In this document: in pieces, positions 2,880 to 62,760 of the stretch
How the letters are laid out: every line of letters starts with the position of its first letter
How positions within the stretch are numbered: position 1 is the stretch's first letter
IMG/VR virus record: IMGVR_UViG_3300028176_000002
Location: 32,497 to 96,496 of that record
DNA length: 64,000 bases
Source: a virus
Direction: 5' to 3' (one strand)
Notes under the pieces: generated by a model
Seen by the model: the letters and a program-made list of their open reading frames with translations, nothing else
Told to the model about the DNA's origin: nothing
The model's database searches: none
Translations under genes and position numbers: made by a program

Positions 2880-4716
2880 TACCGTATTTTTCGTATATAA
2901 AATTATAATACATTCTTTTTCTCATTTCACGGTATTTTTCATCATCTACTGGATGCTGGTGTTCAATTAAAACATCTGGAATAAACGCTATTTTAACATT
3001 GCTATTTAATTTTATATTTAAGAAAAAATCCATGTGTTCAGAATGTATTTTATGTTTGATATCCCAGGGATTATTTTTTAAGACTTCAGTTTTAGCTAAA
3101 AAGAAGTTATAAATGATGTCGCATATACCATATTTTATTTGATTTATCTGGTGAGGTTCTATAGTTTTATTATCTACTAATTTATTCCACTCTATCGAAA
3201 GTAAAATTTTATCTAGTATGAACAAAAATTTCTCATAAGATTTTACTTGACCTTCTTGCCACAATCTTCCGCCCACTATTCCAATATCTTTATTAGCTGA
3301 AAAAACCTCCATCATATTATATATATTCGTGTTACGTGTTAGAATAAAATCATCTTCTAATAATAAAGTATACTGCGTTTTTACCTGCTTAACTAACTCA
3401 TTTCGGGCATAACTTAGTCCACAGTCTTCTGGTAGTTGTAAAACAGTAACGTTTTCATGTGTTATATTTATAGGTTCTTTATTTTGACTTCCTATAATTA
3501 GAGGAATATCTGGGTATAAATTACAGAAGGATTTAACTAACCTATCTAATGACTTTTCTCTATTTAAAGTAGTAACTACTGCAGTAATTGCAGAATAAGT
3601 GTTATCTGTATTAGAAAACTGTGTAAATTCCCAACCTGGATTAGGTATTCTCCAACTTTCGCCATATAAATAGGCTAAATATTTTTCTGACTCATTTGGC
3701 ACTCTAAATTTAGTTCCTAAGAAATCGATATATTTTAGAGGAACTATTAAATCTAGCGGAACTTTCATTCTCCATTCTTCATTCCAGTGTTTATGTATTC
3801 TATTGGGTTTATAAGAATAACAGTATGAATATTTTTCATCTGAAGTATGAAAAAATAAATCTACGTGTGGATGATTAGTATTTCCTTTATATACCGCCAA
3901 TTCCTTATCCCACTGATATTTATATTTAAAATCTGACTTATCCAAAATTTCCTTTACCTTCCATCTATCGTTTATATCCAAACTTATATCAATATCGTTT
4001 GGGTCGTGTGCTATAAAATCTTTATCTCTCACTGCACCTAATAGAGTACCTGTTTGTAACCAGAATTGAATACCATTAAAATCTAGAAGAGATTTTAAAT
4101 CTAATAGCAATTCTTTTTGTGTGAATATTTTGTTGGTAGGGACACTTCTAACTCCATTAAAATATTGGTATAACTGTTTGTTTGGTACTGCGGGTTTATA
4201 CGATAATGGAGTTATCCATTTTTTCCCATATAGCACTTCTAGCATTTTCTCTGGATTCTTAGGTATATTAAATATTTCTCCCTTTAATTCTATTTGTTTA
4301 AAGGGCAGTATATCTTCTTTATTTAATTCCCCATTAATATGATAAAAAGTATAGAATTTATCATCTTCTCCAATCCAACCGTGCCATCCGTCAAACCAAT
4401 TCTTTTCAACAAAATAATGGTTTTGTCCTAAAAAATGTAAATCTCCGCATAACCGTTTTTCGTTATGAAATTTATTATCAATATCAATTATCTGTTTTTT
4501 TACTTCTTCTTTAATATTTACAGTATGAAAAATAATAATATCAAAATCATTGTCAGATAAGATTAAATCTCTTTCTCGCATAGCACCAAGAAGAGTACCG
4601 CCATATAAGAGAATATCATACCCCATTTTCTTAAAATCGGTTTCTAATGTTTTAAGTTTTTTAATTGCTGAATCTTTATCTTCTTCGGTCCAATCTCTAA
4701 AAAATGGGTAACTCAT
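2809..4716 (-). CDS. LicD-LicD-GT2 fusion (phosphotransferase plus glycosyltransferase)
   Basis: Two GTLLGA(M/V)R...D-x-D-x-D motifs, then GT2 motifs GLSYARN and LLEDDF. Confidence 0.85.
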   Translation of the reverse strand: MSYPFFRDWTEEDKDSAIKKLKTLETDFKKMGYDILLYGGTLLGAMRERDLILSDNDFDIIIFHTVNIKEEVKKQIIDIDNKFHNEKRLCGDLHFLGQNHYFVEKNWFDGWHGWIGEDDKFYTFYHINGELNKEDILPFKQIELKGEIFNIPKNPEKMLEVLYGKKWITPLSYKPAVPNKQLYQYFNGVRSVPTNKIFTQKELLLDLKSLLDFNGIQFWLQTGTLLGAVRDKDFIAHDPNDIDISLDINDRWKVKEILDKSDFKYKYQWDKELAVYKGNTNHPHVDLFFHTSDEKYSYCYSYKPNRIHKHWNEEWRMKVPLDLIVPLKYIDFLGTKFRVPNESEKYLAYLYGESWRIPNPGWEFTQFSNTDNTYSAITAVVTTLNREKSLDRLVKSFCNLYPDIPLIIGSQNKEPINITHENVTVLQLPEDCGLSYARNELVKQVKTQYTLLLEDDFILTRNTNIYNMMEVFSANKDIGIVGGRLWQEGQVKSYEKFLFILDKILLSIEWNKLVDNKTIEPHQINQIKYGICDIIYNFFLAKTEVLKNNPWDIKHKIHSEHMDFFLNIKLNSNVKIAFIPDVLIEHQHPVDDEKYREMRKRMYYNFIYEKYGIEKGYTLGESAIINYKENRRENV

Positions 4717-11981: not shown

Positions 11982-13160
11982 TCATTTAATCTCCAATCTT
12001 TTAATAAGTGGAAGGCATAAAAAACTTGTCAAAGCCGATGCAATAATAAGCCAATGTAATCCTATCTTGGGGAAAAGAAAGGCTCCTGTCAATGAACTGG
12101 CAGTTCCCGCAGCAAGGTTGTTTATACCACATAATAGAGCAAATGTAGTGGCTTCTAGACCCTTTATGGATGATTTAGCCATCCAATCCATTATAATAAG
12201 GTGAATTATCATACCTATTAAACTATAAAGGATTAAATATATTACAGCAGTATATGGTTTATAATATAAATAAGACAACGTAGTACACGCACCCAAAAAC
12301 ACAGAATAATATAACCATTTTTTAGTATTAATCTTCTGGCATATTTTCCAATAAATCATGGCACCAATTATTGAAACAACAGAAGAAATACTTCCTAAAA
12401 TTCCTATCCATGCAAAACTCCATTTAAAAATATCTCGCTCCACGTAAGATAATGGTGTGCCAAAAGAGGGAGAAAATTTATATAAGAATAAGAACAGACA
12501 AGCCCAGAGAAACGATTTATGTCTAAAAATTTCTTTATACGGTTTTATAGTGTCTATTAACTTGATTCTAATCCTTTTTACTTTTTCTTCTTTGTAAAAA
12601 TAAAGAGGAATAAACATTATTAAATAGAACGGTATAATCCACAAAAATCCTGTTTTATAGTTGTAGTGTTCAGCTAAATAACCACCTAAAAATCCGGTTA
12701 TAATTGTTGAGGCGGTAATAAACATCCACTGGATGCTCTGAATCTTTCCGGTAATATCATATTTTTTTCCTTCTACGCACATTGTTCCATCCACCCCAGT
12801 ATCTCTTATAGCTGAATCTGCAGAATTAATAAACATTAATGTAATCAAGAAAACTGCAGGAGCAGACCATAGTCCCAAAAATAAAACAGTTATAAGGTCT
12901 AAAACAAGCGAAAGAGTAATCCAAGTTTTTCGGGATAAGAATTGGTCTATACAGTATCCCCATATAATCTTCGGTATCCACGCCAGTCCTATGATAGAAT
13001 TAATATACATCAATTTCTCAGGAGAATACATTAATACTTCTTTGAAATATTTAAAAATGGATAACGATGGCAGCCCTGAGAAGCCCTGTAAAAAATAACA
13101 GGAAGCCGACATGGTAAATATCCAAAATAACTGTTTAGAATCTGTTTTTAATGTTTTCAT
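11982..13160 (-). CDS. MFS transporter, folate/biopterin (BT1)-like
   Basis: ~12 hydrophobic segments; WIPKIIWG..D, D..VDG, GLEATTFAL. Confidence 0.75.
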   Translation of the reverse strand: MKTLKTDSKQLFWIFTMSASCYFLQGFSGLPSLSIFKYFKEVLMYSPEKLMYINSIIGLAWIPKIIWGYCIDQFLSRKTWITLSLVLDLITVLFLGLWSAPAVFLITLMFINSADSAIRDTGVDGTMCVEGKKYDITGKIQSIQWMFITASTIITGFLGGYLAEHYNYKTGFLWIIPFYLIMFIPLYFYKEEKVKRIRIKLIDTIKPYKEIFRHKSFLWACLFLFLYKFSPSFGTPLSYVERDIFKWSFAWIGILGSISSVVSIIGAMIYWKICQKINTKKWLYYSVFLGACTTLSYLYYKPYTAVIYLILYSLIGMIIHLIIMDWMAKSSIKGLEATTFALLCGINNLAAGTASSLTGAFLFPKIGLHWLIIASALTSFLCLPLIKRLEIK

Positions 13161-13377
13161 AGATTGATTTAATGAGATTATAAAACTTTTCAGTTGACAT
13201 GTTCCGTTTAGCGTAGTTACAATGTTTACAACACGGTACTACATTATCTAATATATAACCTTTAGCATTGTCTATTCGGTCTAAACCGTTATAGGTGTAA
13301 TCAAAGTAATCAGATTTTTTAACGTCTTCTAGTGTTGTCGCTTTTGAATATAAATCTTCTATAATCGGATTGCTCAT
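13135..13377 (-). CDS. Truncated HNH-like endonuclease
   Basis: GLDRIDNAKGYILDNVVPCCKHCNYAK, same family as 8295..8777 but lacking the N-terminal part. Confidence 0.6.
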   Translation of the reverse strand: MSNPIIEDLYSKATTLEDVKKSDYFDYTYNGLDRIDNAKGYILDNVVPCCKHCNYAKRNMSTEKFYNLIKSIYENIKNRF

Positions 13378-29565: not shown

Positions 29566-31425
29566 TTATACACCGCTTTCAGTTGTTAGTTCTTTAGTTT
29601 CGAAATTATATTTACATGGTATTGTTGAATTCCTATAGTTGCCCTTGGGGTCCCTCAATTTGTCGACCTGCCAATGACCACTACTACCATCTTCAGCGTC
29701 CATAAAATATCTAGCAGCTAAGGCTGGCATCTGAACTACCATTGATGGAGCGTACCAGTCAAAAGAAGCAGGTTTTAACTGCATAAAGATAACCAGAATT
29801 CCTCCTTTACGTGCCATTTCTTCCGTAAAGAATTTAAATATAGTATCTGTATTCTCTTTTTCTGACACTAATAACCAGTCTAGGATAGTAAATGCATTAG
29901 GTTCAATTTCAATCGACAATGGATTTCCGTGATATGCCTGATAGAAATCATTTTCTTTTAATCCTAATTTACTTGCGGTTTTTTGATACCTACTTCCAGA
30001 TTCGGAATAAATGTAGTAAGGCTTTATTCCTTGTTTAACTAATTGATGAATAAAATTCATACTGGTAGTAGTCTTTCCGGTTCCTGGAGTAGCACCTAAT
30101 AATATAATATCTCCCTCTTCAAAATCTTGCAAATATTCAAAGTAAGGCATCTTATATTTTAATGCTGTTCCGATTTTACCCCAGCTATCCGTCCATTCTA
30201 CTCTTTCTCTAACTTTATATCTACCTCTTGATAATCGAATCGCTTTTCCATCTTTAACAAATTTTGATAAATATTTATCTACTATTGCTCTAGATAATTT
30301 TAAATTATCCATGATATCTTTCGCATTGACATCATTTTGTAACATTTTTAAGTATTCATATATCGCTTGTTCTTGAGTTGTATCTTCGGCAGTTTTATAT
30401 TTATCTAATGAACCAATCATAGCCTGAATTGCTTGCTGAGGCATAGGGTTTTGTAATAAATTACGGTTCATTAAACTTAAAATAAACTCAGTCTGGTCTG
30501 CATTGAATTTATTTATTAAAATACCGCCTAATTTAGTAAATGTATCATTGCAACATCCATCTAAACCATTATTCACTAATTCAATTACACCGTCGGAAGA
30601 AGATGATATTTTAGTAGGTTCTTCTACCTTTCTACCTACTTCTACCTTCAATAATTCCAATAACTTAGCTTTTAATTCTGCAGGAATAATTTTGATTTCT
30701 GCGTCGATAGTTTTCCAATTATAATTTAAATTTTCTATCTTAGACGGTTGAATCAGTACCTGCCCACCGTCATTTCGGGTATCAATTTTTAAACCTGCAA
30801 TATTTACTGTCTGAGGAATATCTTTATCATACTTAAATACATAATGTGTTCCATGTGGAGAATTCTGCATTAATGTTTCTGCAGCAACTAATTCTGCTAG
30901 TAATATGTTTCTAGCTTCATTCTGGTCTTGATTAAAATCAACATCAATTACAGTTATTCCACTAACTTCACCGGTTCTAAGACCTAAGTTATAACCATTA
31001 TTCAACCATTTTATCCAATCCATTTTATCTAAATGAGTAACATTTGTCCAATCTTTCTCAATTGGATGCTTTCCGTTTTTAGCTATCGGGACTAAAGACC
31101 AAGCATTTTTCTTATATACATCTAATTCAGAATAAATATCTACTGCAAAAGAATTAATTAAATACTCTGTAATCTGAGCATCTGTATAATTCTTTTTATC
31201 CTCCTCTAGTATTCGGACTGCATCAAAAAAAGTTCCTCTCCAACCACATTGCATGCAGGTAATTTTTTGAGTACCTGAAATAGTTGTAGCTGTAGGACTT
31301 TTTCCAATGTATTTGTGTCCTGCTAGATTTGGACATGTAAATAGATTTTGTCCATTCTTACTTGTCTTCTCAAAAGTTTTTAATTTACTTTTAAGATAGT
31401 CGAATAACTTATCGTTAACATTCAT
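29566..31425 (-). CDS. Prim-Pol primase fused to RecA-like helicase
   Basis: N-terminal Cys cluster; Prim-Pol motifs VIDVD, GTHY, DTRNDGGQV; Walker A ATPGTGKT; ILDW. Confidence 0.85.
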   Translation of the reverse strand: MNVNDKLFDYLKSKLKTFEKTSKNGQNLFTCPNLAGHKYIGKSPTATTISGTQKITCMQCGWRGTFFDAVRILEEDKKNYTDAQITEYLINSFAVDIYSELDVYKKNAWSLVPIAKNGKHPIEKDWTNVTHLDKMDWIKWLNNGYNLGLRTGEVSGITVIDVDFNQDQNEARNILLAELVAAETLMQNSPHGTHYVFKYDKDIPQTVNIAGLKIDTRNDGGQVLIQPSKIENLNYNWKTIDAEIKIIPAELKAKLLELLKVEVGRKVEEPTKISSSSDGVIELVNNGLDGCCNDTFTKLGGILINKFNADQTEFILSLMNRNLLQNPMPQQAIQAMIGSLDKYKTAEDTTQEQAIYEYLKMLQNDVNAKDIMDNLKLSRAIVDKYLSKFVKDGKAIRLSRGRYKVRERVEWTDSWGKIGTALKYKMPYFEYLQDFEEGDIILLGATPGTGKTTTSMNFIHQLVKQGIKPYYIYSESGSRYQKTASKLGLKENDFYQAYHGNPLSIEIEPNAFTILDWLLVSEKENTDTIFKFFTEEMARKGGILVIFMQLKPASFDWYAPSMVVQMPALAARYFMDAEDGSSGHWQVDKLRDPKGNYRNSTIPCKYNFETKELTTESGV

Positions 31426-42898: not shown

Positions 42899-43564
42899 TT
42901 ATTCAACATACTTTTTCTTTAATCCTTGCAAAATTTGTTTTACTCTTTGTTTTGTAACCCCAATTATACGAGCTATTTCTGTCTGTTTTATGTTACCATT
43001 TTCCTGAAATAAATTTATTATTTTTATTTCATTTTCATTCAAATTTTCGAACATATCTGTAAAATTCTCATCTGCCACGGATTTTTCCTGTGGAATATCA
43101 TCAATTAAAGATTTCTCTTTTCCTGTGTCATCAACTACATTCATTGAGTTAAATTTTAGGTAATTAAAGAATTTATTTTTCCTAGCGAATTTTGGTGTCC
43201 AATTCCAAATCGCAGCGAATAAATATGTTTCAAAAGATTCTGTCGGTTTATATTTTTTAAGAATTCTAATTACCTCAATTGCAAGTTCTTGTTCAACATC
43301 TTCTAATTCTGTCTGCTTAGTATCTACTAATCTAAAATTATGTTCATACACCGGAGTTTTCTTTCCGTCTAATGCTTTAATATGCCCTGTAAGTTTTCCT
43401 TCGTGAAAAGTTTTCTGATAATAAACAAAAGAAGCTTTCTGTTTTAAAATATGTTTTAATAATTTAAATATCTTAACTAAAATAGTCTTATCTTTAGTTT
43501 CAATATATTCTTTGGCTAGTCTGTCTAATTCAGGATTCATTCGAGTATATCCTCCGGCATACAT
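42899..43564 (-). CDS. Sigma70-family-like factor
   Basis: Region-2-like EDVEQE...KY....SFETY and region-4 HTH QTEIARIIGVTKQRVKQI. Confidence 0.75.
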   Translation of the reverse strand: MYAGGYTRMNPELDRLAKEYIETKDKTILVKIFKLLKHILKQKASFVYYQKTFHEGKLTGHIKALDGKKTPVYEHNFRLVDTKQTELEDVEQELAIEVIRILKKYKPTESFETYLFAAIWNWTPKFARKNKFFNYLKFNSMNVVDDTGKEKSLIDDIPQEKSVADENFTDMFENLNENEIKIINLFQENGNIKQTEIARIIGVTKQRVKQILQGLKKKYVE

Positions 43565-59257: not shown

Positions 59258-60431
59258 GGGCTAGAGATAAAATATTTTTTATGCTATAACCTATTGAATA
59301 ACAATCATTTATAACAATTGATTATAACTATTTTATAACTATTTTATTTTATTACATAAACAATTGCAATCATTAAGGTTATAAAACCCGGTCAATTGGT
59401 TAAGTAAAGCATTGAATCGGGATTCCCGGCACTATGCCCGGCACGATTCCCGGGATAATCTAAAGAAATAAAATCAATCTAATCGGTCAAAATAGATTGA
59501 TTATAATTGAGTAATTGCCCGGGATTATTCCCGGCTAACTGAATAATAAAAAGCATTTAATTGATTAAAATAAAATCAAGATAATCATTTAAAATAAAAG
59601 CCGGATAATTGATTAAACTAATGTAAACAAGAGTAAAAATAAAATTGATTTAATGAGGTAATTTAAAAAACAGGCAAAGCCCAAATTCCCGGGCTACCTT
59701 GCCCGGATTATCTTTTATCTATACAATAAAAGCCCATTGATTATCAATTGATTATCATAAGTTATTGCAATTACTAGAGATACGGCAGGGTTAAATTTAG
59801 CAATTAAAACGATTAAAAAAAATTGCCGGTAGACTGTGTGCGGATTCCCAGAAATCATTTTTCCTAAATTCAGCCCCAATAAAAAATATAAAATCAATCA
59901 CACCATCATGTTACATTAATTCGCCATCATACATCTCCATAATTGGTCAATTCTCCCCCCGATATTATTATTAATTATCCTGTTTTTGTTTTAAATCGTT
60001 GATATCATTAATGTTATATTTAGTTTTGACAATTCCAGTGTCAACTTCCCAGCAAGTTCCCGGTAAAACAATCAATTTTAGGTGTTTTTTCGGTGTTGTA
60101 AGTCGTTGTGCTGCAATATGTTATTCGGCAGCCCCCGGCATGTTATTTTTAGCAAAAAGGAGTGTCAAGATACAGGACAGTGTGTCTAATATATTAAACA
60201 CATGTCTATTATATTAGACTTATATATCTATCCAAATTTTTAGAGATATGCTATATTTTTCTTCAAAATCTTATATATCGGGTACGATTATTAAAGAATT
60301 AGCGGAATTTCTTCATTAAACGATTCTATTATTAAAGTTTATGCTAGATAGGGTCTAATTACTAATTAAATACTACTGAATACTATTCCAGTATTACATC
60401 TACGTCATTGCTATCATTAATTTTAGGTCAA

Positions 60432-60659
60432 TCTACCTACCATCTACTATCAATCTACCCGGTATCTACCTTGCTAAGTCAGGTAGAAGTGAGGTAGAAC
60501 TTAGTAGATTCAGGTAGATATAGTCTTTATCACAACGATAAAGCACAATCTTATCTAAGCACTCTTAGAGTTTCTACCCTATTTCTACCTTTTACATAAC
60601 AGTTAACGATTTCAATAAGTTACGTAGTTTCTACCTAGTTTCTACTATTACAAGGTAGA
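60432..60659. repeat. Helically phased TCTAC/GTAGA repeats
   Basis: TCTAC at 60432, 60443, 60454, 60465; GTAGA at 60483, 60494, 60504, 60514; more at 60573, 60584, 60630, 60641. Confidence 0.8.
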
Positions 60660-61278
60660 TGAAGGCAGATACCCAATCTGCCACAATCTACTTTTTATGT
60701 TTTATATCAAGCATCATTCTCGAAATGCCGAAGCCGAGCTTCCCCCAGCCCCCGGGGATACGTAAGTCGACCAATATGAGGAGATTAGGTACGGAGGTTC
60801 GTTTTGGAAGGGAAGAATCATTCATGGGCGAATTAAAGAAGGGAGTATAATTAATCTTGAAAATACGTTGAGCGACCGCAGGAGCGAAACCTATTTAGAT
60901 TTATGGTTTATATAAATCTAAATAAAACAAAAGGTTTTCTTAAGTTATTGGTTATTGATATCTTATAGTCTTAACTTATTGACTATTATATTCAAAAGAC
61001 TAATAAGGTTGAGATGGGATTCGAAAAATAAGCGATATAATCATTTTAATTATTTTGGTGAGTGTGCGGGGCGTTTTTGCCCAAAATTGCTTCATATTGA
61101 GCTCACAGTATACTGTTTTTAGCTTTATATACAGAATACTGTATATAGTCATTTATATAAGTATAGTAATAGCAATGATTTAGTGAATTAAATGGTTTAT
61201 TTTAAAAATAGTTTTAGGTGTTGTTGTAAGATTAATGATTACAATGAGTTATGACAAAAATTATTTTTTAGTCGCCCC

Positions 61279-61306
61279 TTGACTTTGAGGGTAAATTAGG
61301 CATACT
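61279..61306 (+). promoter_or_regulatory. Possible rightward promoter
   Basis: TTGACT-16-CATACT. Confidence 0.45.
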
Positions 61307-61363
61307 TAGTACTTGTCCGGTATAAAGATTAATCTTAATTCGTGCTCAAGAAAGGTGAAGTAA

Positions 61364-61582
61364 ATGAGAAAAAGAATGATGGTAGGATGTCCTCAGTGCG
61401 GAAGAAAGATGTCAAATGGTAAACAAGGCTGTTTGTGCGTAGAATGTTCAGTTGGAAGAGAAAATACGCATGAAACACAAGAATCGGATAATCCTAGTTA
61501 TCTTTTAACAACTGAAATGCATGAAAGTAACTATTCAAGACGCTTAGCTGAAGGTTTCGCAATGATGAATGGAGATTATTAA
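61364..61582 (+). CDS. Small Zn-ribbon protein
   Basis: CPQCG...LCVEC; AAGGTG RBS. Confidence 0.55.
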   Translation: MRKRMMVGCPQCGRKMSNGKQGCLCVECSVGRENTHETQESDNPSYLLTTEMHESNYSRRLAEGFAMMNGDY

Positions 61583-61647
61583 AATGAATTTTTTCACGGA
61601 AGAAGAAGCAGGTCCTTATTAAATTGTTCTTAAAAATATAAATACAT

Positions 61648-62200
61648 AAATTTTTCAGGGGCTGATACCTGGCAAAGTTCGGAGTCTTGACTCCCATAAT
61701 CGGCTGGCTAAAACGAAAACCCCAAAAATTTTCAACCCGGATTAAATCAAACGATTTAATTCCTCTCTTTCTGACTTCCGGTCGCTCAAAAATGTTTTAA
61801 TGTGGATTATTTAAAAATAATTCATGACTGGCTCGGAAAGAGTTTTTCAAATCATCCCGGCAATAGCCGGATATAAAAGTCCACTCGCCGAAAAAGGTCG
61901 GTGGCAATTGTTGGGAGCACTGCGGATAGCGGGGCTCCCTTACTGACAAGTCATTCTTCAGGTGATAAGATTAATATTGGTCGACTGAAGATGCAAGATA
62001 GATAGGAGAATTAATTTTCTCCTACCAAATGTATCTATCGGAAATAAAAATATTAATGTTAATGCTTAGGGCGAAGAAATTTTTTCGCTCTATTCGTGTT
62101 TTCAAAATGTAGATGAGAATTAAAATACTCATCACCAAAGTTCAGTCTCGGTAGTCATGTCGGGAACAAAAACTTAGTGCCACATTAGGCACACCTGAAC
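61648..62200 (+). ncRNA. Candidate large structured ncRNA (~550 nt)
   Basis: More than ten consecutive stems and a long-range loop pairing in a region without a credible ORF; strand inferred from context. Confidence 0.55.
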
Positions 62201-62226
62201 AACAATTTTTAACGAAAGGAATTAGA

Positions 62227-62760
62227 ATGAATTTTAAAAATGTAATAAATAAAATCGGATTATTTACTCTACCAGTATTAGGTGGTCTGCTCGGAGCGTT
62301 AGGCGGAGCCGATAAGAGTTCTAAATCATATCGAAGATTTGTTCTTCCGGCTTTATTAACAAGTTTTGCTTTTTCAAATACTCAAAGCGTTTTTGTAATT
62401 ACAGCAATGGCGATGAGCGGTGCTCTGAGTATTGGTTACGGAATTCCTGGAGTAGGCGACGCAGGAAGTTTTCTTGGAAGATTTTTTTATAAATTATTTA
62501 AACAAAATCATTTAGTCGCTGACATAATGACCAGAGCGACTATTGGTTTATTAATTTCATTATCATTTATTTCATTACCAATTATAAAACATAATTGGAT
62601 AATTTATTCTGCGTGTTCTTTAGGAATTATTTTAACGAATGGATTAATTTCTTGGAGAAATTTAGGCGGGTATAAATTATTCAATCGAAATCTTATTTGG
62701 AGCGAAACTATCACGTGGTTTTTAATCACATTATTTGCAACTATTTTAATATATTTTTAA
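62227..62760 (+). CDS. Multi-pass membrane protein
   Basis: Several hydrophobic helices; AAGGA RBS. Confidence 0.7.
   Translation: MNFKNVINKIGLFTLPVLGGLLGALGGADKSSKSYRRFVLPALLTSFAFSNTQSVFVITAMAMSGALSIGYGIPGVGDAGSFLGRFFYKLFKQNHLVADIMTRATIGLLISLSFISLPIIKHNWIIYSACSLGIILTNGLISWRNLGGYKLFNRNLIWSETITWFLITLFATILIYF

Follow-up and report, generated by a model that had tools for sequence, protein, structure and literature searches.

The region described here lies in a 64,000-nt stretch of viral DNA (hereafter the window) that corresponds to bases 32497-96496 of the 96,496-bp virus record IMGVR_UViG_3300028176_000002, which has an 85-bp terminal repeat. The phage genome has a G+C content of ~31% and encodes a family B DNA polymerase. 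Almost all proteins of the clade are without annotation, and ARAGORN found no tRNA or tmRNA gene in the window, nor in the complete 96.5-kb genome. Leftward genes begin at ~59.2 kb of the window, and rightward genes run from 62227 across the end of the record to genome position 29683. The rightward (+) arm is ~31.5 kb in length (genome 94723-end plus 385-29683) and tightly packed; only seven gaps reach at least 45 nt, and there are few places for internal promoters. It opens with genes for a membrane protein, a phrog_1084 protein and collagen-like tail-fibre proteins. The two arms are separated by 2988 nt without long open reading frames (ORFs), the last 600 nt of which form a structured RNA region. 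An initial annotation, made from the sequence without database searches, had placed a candidate RNA ahead of the virion genes, and this is indeed its location.

Protein- and pattern-guided searches of IMG/VR identified two related uncultivated phages with a homologue of the RNA at the syntenic place: IMGVR_UViG_3300029286_000058 (L003; ~4030-4395, nhmmer E 3e-17) and IMGVR_UViG_3300031772_004865 (L064; ~12715-13215, nhmmer E 6e-7). Their context is alike, with phased TCTACC repeats, a non-coding stretch and then a phrog_1084-like late gene. In the window, the phased TCTACC/GGTAGA repeats (60430-60680) lie in a 740-nt ORF-less stretch (60357-61097; L003 2345-3079; L064 12060-12360) that is 76.6% identical to L003, a level above the conservation of the RNA itself. 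The repeats are also present in L064. The block folds equally on both strands, like DNA-level repeats, and may be an origin or a regulator-binding field.

Downstream of the repeats is a sigma-70-type promoter-like site on the + strand (TTGACT-17-ATACTT, 61279-61307; the consensus scan lists it as TTGACT-16-CATACT, 61279-61306). The same layout occurs in L003 (TTGACT-17-AAACTT), and the block 61152-61286 is 72% identical to that phage. We infer that the rightward transcript likely starts at this site. A motif AAT(G/A)(A/G)GTTATGA is present in all three phages (window 61243-61256, L003 3407-3420, L064 12288-12300), ~25-35 nt upstream of the TTGACT -35 box in the window and L003, and may be a regulator site. 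Between the promoter and the RNA, the ORF list includes a 72-aa Cys-rich ORF (CxxC...CxCxxC; 61364-61582, +), for which Pfam and PHROG gave no match and tblastn none in the related loci. L003 has an HNH/EndoVII-like ORF in this slot instead, and L064 has no ORF there. As the 72-aa ORF is unconserved, it is probably outside the element. The L003 ORF (3519-4022) is HNH/endonuclease VII-like and contains an in-frame TAG (..YTNL*PLWAKDN..). If the TAG is read as Gln, the protein matches phrog_1035 through residue 165 (E 3e-7), and this could reflect either stop-codon recoding in the L003 phage or a broken homing endonuclease.

On the other side of the RNA is the first gene of the + arm (62214-62760 including its Shine-Dalgarno sequence, AAAGGA; ORF list), which encodes a 177-aa membrane protein of no known family by Pfam and PHROG. 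We identified 75 homologues of this protein, the closest of which (P0002-P0009) are 78-88% identical; the DNA ahead of the genes for these closest homologues is the likeliest place for further variants of the RNA. In most relatives no long leader precedes the gene, which lies directly after another ORF. A 15-nt direct repeat, ATTA(A/G)AATGAATTTT, brackets the RNA (61578-61592 and 62221-62235), and its downstream copy is the start of the membrane-protein gene. Just upstream of the RNA, 61617-61639 resembles the gene start in L003 (score 30, 0/200 shuffles). These repeats may be the scar of an insertion or a recombination event; alternatively, they may be an AT-rich signal that recurs. A group I intron with exon duplication was considered and rejected: there is no intron core and no Rfam intron match, and the downstream gene is intact, with its own Shine-Dalgarno sequence and start, and matches its homologues from residue 1. 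No such gene flanks the RNA in L064.

All stems listed in the initial annotation are present at about the places given there, as checked in the sequence and in minimum free energy (MFE) folds. For the + strand of 61640-62210, the predicted folding energy is -172.4 kcal/mol (z -6.63), a stability reached by 0 of 100 dinucleotide shuffles. The corresponding value for the - strand is -148.7 kcal/mol (z -2.88), and thus the folding is strand-specific. In a composition-corrected scan of both strands of the 96.5-kb genome, the + strand segments at 61905 and 61705 were the two most stable of 962 segments of 300 nt. The 5' 100 nt are not unusually stable alone (61505-61804, z +1.0). In L064 the fold is again strand-specific (-158.9 kcal/mol, z -6.82 on the + strand; -103.6 kcal/mol, z -2.25 on the - strand), and L003 has z -3.45 on the + strand vs -2.56 on the - strand. 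A coding function was rejected, as all six frames contain TAA, TAG and TGA.

The conserved unit extends over ~450 nt (~61649-62103) between the promoter and the first late gene. All of its parts are encoded on the + strand. It begins with a 5' domain (61649-61730) closed by stem P1, AATTTTT-C-AGGGG/CCCC-A-AAAAATT (61649-61661 with 61720-61730; pairing checked), within which is a small hairpin, GGAGT/ACTCC (61681-61694). P1 occurs at the same place in L003 as AATTTA-A-TAAGG/CCTTA-AA-TAAATT, with T-A to A-T and G-C to A-T exchanges, and in L064 as AGGGGCAG/CUUGCUCCU. The 5' domain also has the shared motifs CTGATAC and ACGAWWA. The variable middle (61739-61905) comprises four hairpins among the MFE helices: 61739-61762 (stem GGATTAAATC/GATTTAATTC), 61765-61842, 61857-61870 (CCGGC/GCCGG) and 61879-61905. 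It has no sequence match in L003 or L064, both of which have other hairpins there.

The conserved core (61912-62045; H1-H5), identified by nhmmer, a covariance model, MFE folds and covariation, starts with hairpin H1 (GGGAGC/GCTCCC, 61913-61939), the sequence of which differs in each phage. It is followed by an invariant, unpaired motif, GACAAGTCAT (61945-61954). Stem H2, CAT.CTTCAG/CTGAAG.ATG (CTTCAG/CTGAAG at 61956-61990), encloses hairpin H3, GATTA/TGGTC, with the invariant GGTCGACT. The core ends with a stacked hairpin, H4/H5, in which GATAGA/TCTATC surrounds TAGGAGAA/TTCTCCTA (61997-62039). Beyond the core are an A/U-rich single-stranded linker and, by the terminator scan, a terminator-like hairpin with a T-rich tail (62046-62103), which are the probable 3' end or an attenuator. 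Farther downstream are hairpins specific to the window (62112-62200): GATGAG/CTCATC (62112-62133) and GTTCAG/CTGAAC around two further hairpins (62140-62200). They are absent from both L003 and L064.

Common to the relatives are only the ~135-nt core, the 5' closing stem and the terminator-like hairpin; variable modules of hairpins occupy the middle and the 3' end. The earlier description of a multi-domain non-coding RNA of ~550 nt is supported as regards a structured RNA and not supported as regards a single fold of that length; the conserved unit is ~61649-62103, and 62112-62200 is phage-specific. The same annotation had proposed a long-range pseudoknot between TAGTCATG (62152-62159) and CATGACTG (61823-61830). 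These arms can pair on paper (7 Watson-Crick pairs and 1 G-U). The proposal did not find support: shuffles of the same composition contain ~11 (sd 5) long-range 8-bp matches of this quality, CATGACTG sits within a predicted stem, and both arms are in parts that cannot be aligned to the homologues. Three other interactions were also rejected. A kissing dimer via the palindrome GUCGAC would require a loop, and the palindrome spans a stem and a junction. An anti-terminator pairing of TCGCC (61886-61890) with the terminator-like hairpin is unconserved in L003, as is the long-range pairing of 61966-61978 with 62049-62061 that appears in the MFE fold of the whole region.

Independent MFE folds gave the same four-helix architecture for the 135-nt core in all three phages. 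MAFFT alone misaligns the helices, and a model-based alignment (A8) was used. Its 34 pairs are formed in 96.6% of cells, vs 35-47% when the partners are slid, and 11 of them changed on both sides; 0 of 500 shuffles reach the observed values, which derive from three sequences in an alignment fitted to the model. Within that scope, compensatory changes keep the pairs, as is generally expected of a conserved structured RNA, and the covariation that the initial annotation had proposed to look for among homologues is present. For example, H5 is GGAGAA/TTCTCC, GGGCAA/TTGCCC and GGGTGC/GCACCC in the three phages. H3 uses U-G, U-G and G-U pairs; such pairs fit a + strand RNA only, because they would be A-C mismatches on the other strand. 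The conservation also includes a 35-nt block holding the terminator-like hairpin, which is identical in L003 amid a background of ~70% identity.

These data bear on whether the region has any function at all. It could be AT-rich spacer or leftover DNA with many hairpins by chance, and its narrow distribution, the free exchange of the variable middle and 3' parts and the 15-nt direct repeat of the gene start that flanks it, a hint of an insertion or recombination scar, would agree with this. We consider this very improbable: nothing else in the genome stands out as much in folding, and the region does so on one strand only. Four helices are maintained in three phages by compensatory changes, and invariant motifs accompany the 35-nt identical block. 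Less probable still is an element that acts at the DNA level or in replication, whether as hairpins extruded at an origin or packaging site or as a structured primer transcript (similar to ColE1 RNA II or a T4-type R-loop origin). The RNA lies ~1 kb from the phased repeats at the divergent junction, where the cumulative GC skew turns, and the repeats and the 740-nt non-coding block are shared with L003, the repeats also with L064. Against this, the GC skew simply tracks gene orientation, it is the repeat block itself that folds equally on both strands, and the RNA region folds asymmetrically in both the window and L064, with conserved helices that use G-U pairs.

Covariance models were used to look for more distant relatives. 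A single-sequence model (R1) was too weak, and a model of the window and L003 (R2), built without L064, was used instead; it finds L064 with 46.7 bits (E 3e-10). R2 detects a single copy per genome. It has no match in 87 other loci, nor in the records of eight more distant phages, some of which share the two-arm layout. There was no blastn match in 50,697 phage records. Among ~45 related loci collected with the membrane protein alone, its 52-sequence alignment and the phrog_1084-like protein as queries, the RNA is present only in the L003 contig. Exact-pattern scans of IMG/VR gave true matches only in the L003 and L064 contigs, all others being chance matches, and the 33 matches that a pattern scan returned from 185,579 species genomes were likewise all due to chance. 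Thus, the family is narrow and consists of three genomes and metagenome variants. One such variant is a sediment DNA contig that carries 61872-62103 with one substitution and one deletion, both of which would fall at unpaired positions by our reading of the fold. Another is an RNA-library contig (run X9 record 13; 61945-61995 of the window) in which H1 of the L003 type (CTGCC..GGCAG) is joined to a core of the window type with one mismatch. This natural mosaic shows modular exchange and the presence of a second variant in the same RNA library.

The divergent junctions of phages G005 and G007 have no comparable structure, and that of G009 (IMGVR_UViG_3300031834_000002) has strand-symmetric folds only. 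At the latter (87901-88350), z is -7 to -10 on both strands, which suggests a long DNA-level inverted repeat, not an RNA. As the element is missing in the eight distant phages and no comparable + strand structure occurs at the three scanned junctions, it is not a general requirement.

No model of Rfam 15 (4227 models including GOLLD, ROOL, RNase P, tmRNA, group I/II introns and riboswitches) matched any part of the window at its gathering threshold. At E values up to 10, only chance-level matches to miRNAs, snoRNAs and sRNAs were found in the window, L064 and L003; these differ among the three phages, save for the STnc410 sRNA (12-15 bits, against a gathering score of 50). No Rfam family reached the E 10 cut-off beyond such chance-level matches, whether or not EAR is included. 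GOLLD and ROOL often neighbour tRNA genes in phage or prophage DNA. ARAGORN identified no such neighbour in the window or the 96.5-kb genome, and the covariance models showed no likeness to GOLLD and ROOL, which the initial annotation had mentioned as known large phage RNAs. Its statement that no tmRNA, RNase P or group I core is recognisable is borne out by Rfam 15 and ARAGORN. As a sequence family the RNA is new; its nearest likeness in kind is to the antitermination RNAs and structured operon leaders that mobile elements carry.

Contigs from three lake-water metatranscriptome runs match the window at 99-100% identity. They cover 61334-61509, 61493-61980, 61726-61899, 61348-61539, 61458-61608 and 62325-62488, and one bridges the upstream ORF and the RNA. 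The two most 5' contigs (from 61334 and 61348) begin ~20-35 nt after the start predicted for transcription from the TTGACT-17-ATACTT promoter. No contig covers 61000-61333 or 61996-62324, and in assembled contigs such missing cover is no evidence. The region, for which RNA-seq had been proposed as a check, is thereby represented in RNA-library contigs from 61334 to 61995, which show presence and not ends, strand or level, and which could include DNA carry-over.

The terminator-like hairpin (62067-62092, GGGCGAA/TTCGCTC) has 11 bp, 4 of them G-C pairs, and the tail TTCGTGTTTT. Because this T-tract is interrupted, the hairpin may terminate weakly or not at all. In L064 a different, strong terminator closes the structured stretch (13163-13204, 19 bp, tail TTTATTTTAT); both sites qualify as intrinsic terminators in the sense of a consensus match. 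The identical hairpin of L003 is separated from the start codon of the first late gene by 36 nt, which include the Shine-Dalgarno sequence. As this spacing leaves no room for a promoter, late-gene transcripts of L003 must cross the RNA and the hairpin. The window phage has a promoter-like TTTTCA-16-TAAAAT after the hairpin (62099-62126). Farther along, the + arm has one strong + strand terminator in its interior (genome 17159-17185) and another at its end (29781-29814).

In all three phages the unit is discrete, bounded by a closing stem on the 5' side and by a terminator-like hairpin on the 3' side. This is also what would be expected of a stand-alone RNA that ends at the conserved hairpin and acts in trans on targets of the host or the phage. 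Such an RNA could serve, for instance, as a decoy or scaffold in the manner of GOLLD and ROOL, or as a small RNA with a chaperone-binding A/U stretch and a terminator hairpin. The unpaired, conserved GACAAGTCAT and GGTCGACT and the A/U-rich linker could be binding sites, the host-type promoter suggests expression without phage factors, and in L064 a promoter-like TTACAA-17-TAATAG, found by eye, lies just before the structured stretch. This is the main rival explanation, although we judge it rather unlikely. The RNA matches neither GOLLD, ROOL nor any other Rfam model and has no tRNAs nearby, and contigs cover the RNA and the neighbouring gene to a similar depth (6.0 and 3.2, respectively), a weak measure. 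The position of the late genes in L003 argues against an action in trans only, since there the RNA is at least also a leader.

A leader could also act after transcription, by protecting the long late mRNA against decay from its 5' end, by RNase III-type processing or by gating translation of the first late gene. A region that is mostly a chain of independent hairpins, with sequences exchangeable between phages, would suit such a role. A weak hairpin (62204-62223) covers the Shine-Dalgarno sequence, and 14 nt at 61757-61770 are 86% complementary to the Shine-Dalgarno region. However, complementarity of this degree is no more than chance would give (1 kb holds 17 such pairs), and L003 lacks it. 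In addition, a mere stabiliser needs neither invariant unpaired motifs nor a covarying multi-helix core, and in L064 the core is ~500 nt from the next gene. We therefore regard post-transcriptional control as improbable.

The order of promoter, ORF slot, RNA, hairpin and late arm, together with the internal terminators of the arm and the spacing in L003, points instead to a cis-acting read-through leader. We tentatively favour, on the combined analysis, the explanation that this clade-specific structured RNA governs termination or read-through into the ~31.5-kb late arm. Transcription would start at the sigma-70-type promoter (61279-61307), cross the variable ORF slot and then produce the ~450-nt RNA, in which the P1 domain, variable hairpins, four-helix core, A/U-rich linker and terminator-like hairpin would emerge in that order, with the first late gene next. 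The conserved core would act in cis on the transcribing RNA polymerase, directly or via a factor, and would thereby set the choice between a halt at the conserved hairpin and passage through both this hairpin and the late arm's internal terminators. This would be processive antitermination or attenuation, as in Tn916 canT, HK022 put, B. subtilis EAR and pLS20 conAn2. The RNA does occupy the position of antitermination RNAs, as a transcribed leader between a promoter and a long operon with terminator-like sites (62067 in the window, and genome 17159 and 29781). The interrupted T-tract, the promoter-like site after the hairpin, a possible phage sigma factor and the lack of the element in distant phages count against the leader reading. 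The initial annotation had suggested either a new RNA class or a structured late-gene leader; a non-coding region with strand-specific structure, no known family, covariation, RNA-library contigs and this position is compatible with both, and it is the leader that we prefer.

Among known late leaders, that of phage lambda (PR'-6S RNA-tR') starts from a host-type promoter and yields a terminated leader transcript ahead of the late genes, which are expressed by Q antitermination. The likeness is that read-through of a leader terminator would switch on virion genes. The lambda leader differs in that it is 194 nt long, has no conserved complex fold and needs DNA-bound Q, and no Q was found in the lake phage. 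HK022 put is small (~70 nt); it consists of two stem-loops and serves early operons, whereas the lake-phage core is ~135 nt within a 450-nt unit. Both put, which is phage-encoded, and B. subtilis EAR are RNA-only elements located just downstream of a promoter that make RNA polymerase terminator-resistant (PMC9378689; PMC11658703). A close analogue by description is canT of Tn916, a cis-acting, processive, multi-stem-loop RNA of 452 nt (minimum 341 nt) at the head of a long operon (PMC11658703). Both are complex stem-loop RNAs of several hundred nt in the operon leader of a mobile element, upstream of terminators to be read through. They differ in host and element type, an integrative and conjugative element of Firmicutes for canT and an uncultivated lake phage for the present RNA, and the activity of canT was shown by reporters (PMC11658703). 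RNA antiterminators are the closest functional precedents; put, EAR and conAn2 work in a similar way to canT, and some act over ~30 kb (PMC11658703, PMC9378689). Q/qut antitermination is also cited in PMC11658703. The RNA shares with GOLLD, first seen in lake metagenomes, and with ROOL that these are large, highly structured phage non-coding RNAs of unknown function (PMC5737381; bioRxiv 10.1101/2024.12.08.627333). It differs from them in being smaller and much more narrowly distributed, in the lack of tRNA neighbours and in that only ~1/3 of its length is conserved.

Only a small number of RNA elements (put, EAR, canT and conAn2) are known to carry RNA polymerase through terminators alone, and none of this kind is known to have been defined by comparative structure in lytic-type phages of uncultivated hosts. 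In the lake-phage RNA, a compact, covarying core with invariant unpaired motifs is followed directly by a natural terminator-like hairpin, and there are natural variants of the peripheral hairpins. With this combination, the RNA lends itself to a clean test by reporters or in vitro transcription. A stronger form of the leader explanation, which we hold to be doubtful, is that the RNA is by itself the late switch. It would then be a large phage RNA of a new class that heads a 31-kb virion operon and reprograms host RNA polymerase without a protein. Its size would be several times that of put, with no sequence relationship to canT or EAR, and its four-helix core, with GACAAGUCAU and GGUCGACU, might, with equal doubt, be a polymerase-binding module. 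If the RNA acts in trans, it would instead extend by one family the small set of large, structured phage RNAs whose function is unknown. In both cases, it marks the entry of this phage clade into late gene expression.

Models of Q-family antiterminators (PF06530, PF03589) had no match in six frames of the genome, with positive E. coli controls; divergent Q-like proteins could escape them. No NusG/LoaP-type antiterminator was detectable in the genome. Both negative results speak for the leader explanation. Two gaps in the late arm (genome 12353-12428 and 17018-17206; L133, L134) contain G+C-rich hairpins, GAGGGGACG..CGTCCCCTC and GAGGAGTCTCAGG..CCTGAGCTCCTC. These hairpins and the internal terminator would be stops that a late transcript must pass. 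Also encoded, in the early arm, is a 221-aa ORF (42899-43564, - strand) with a Sigma70_r2 match of 22.2 bits, under the Pfam cut-off of 24. Judging from this match, it may encode a phage sigma factor for middle or late promoters, and a protein route to late transcription is thereby a possibility.
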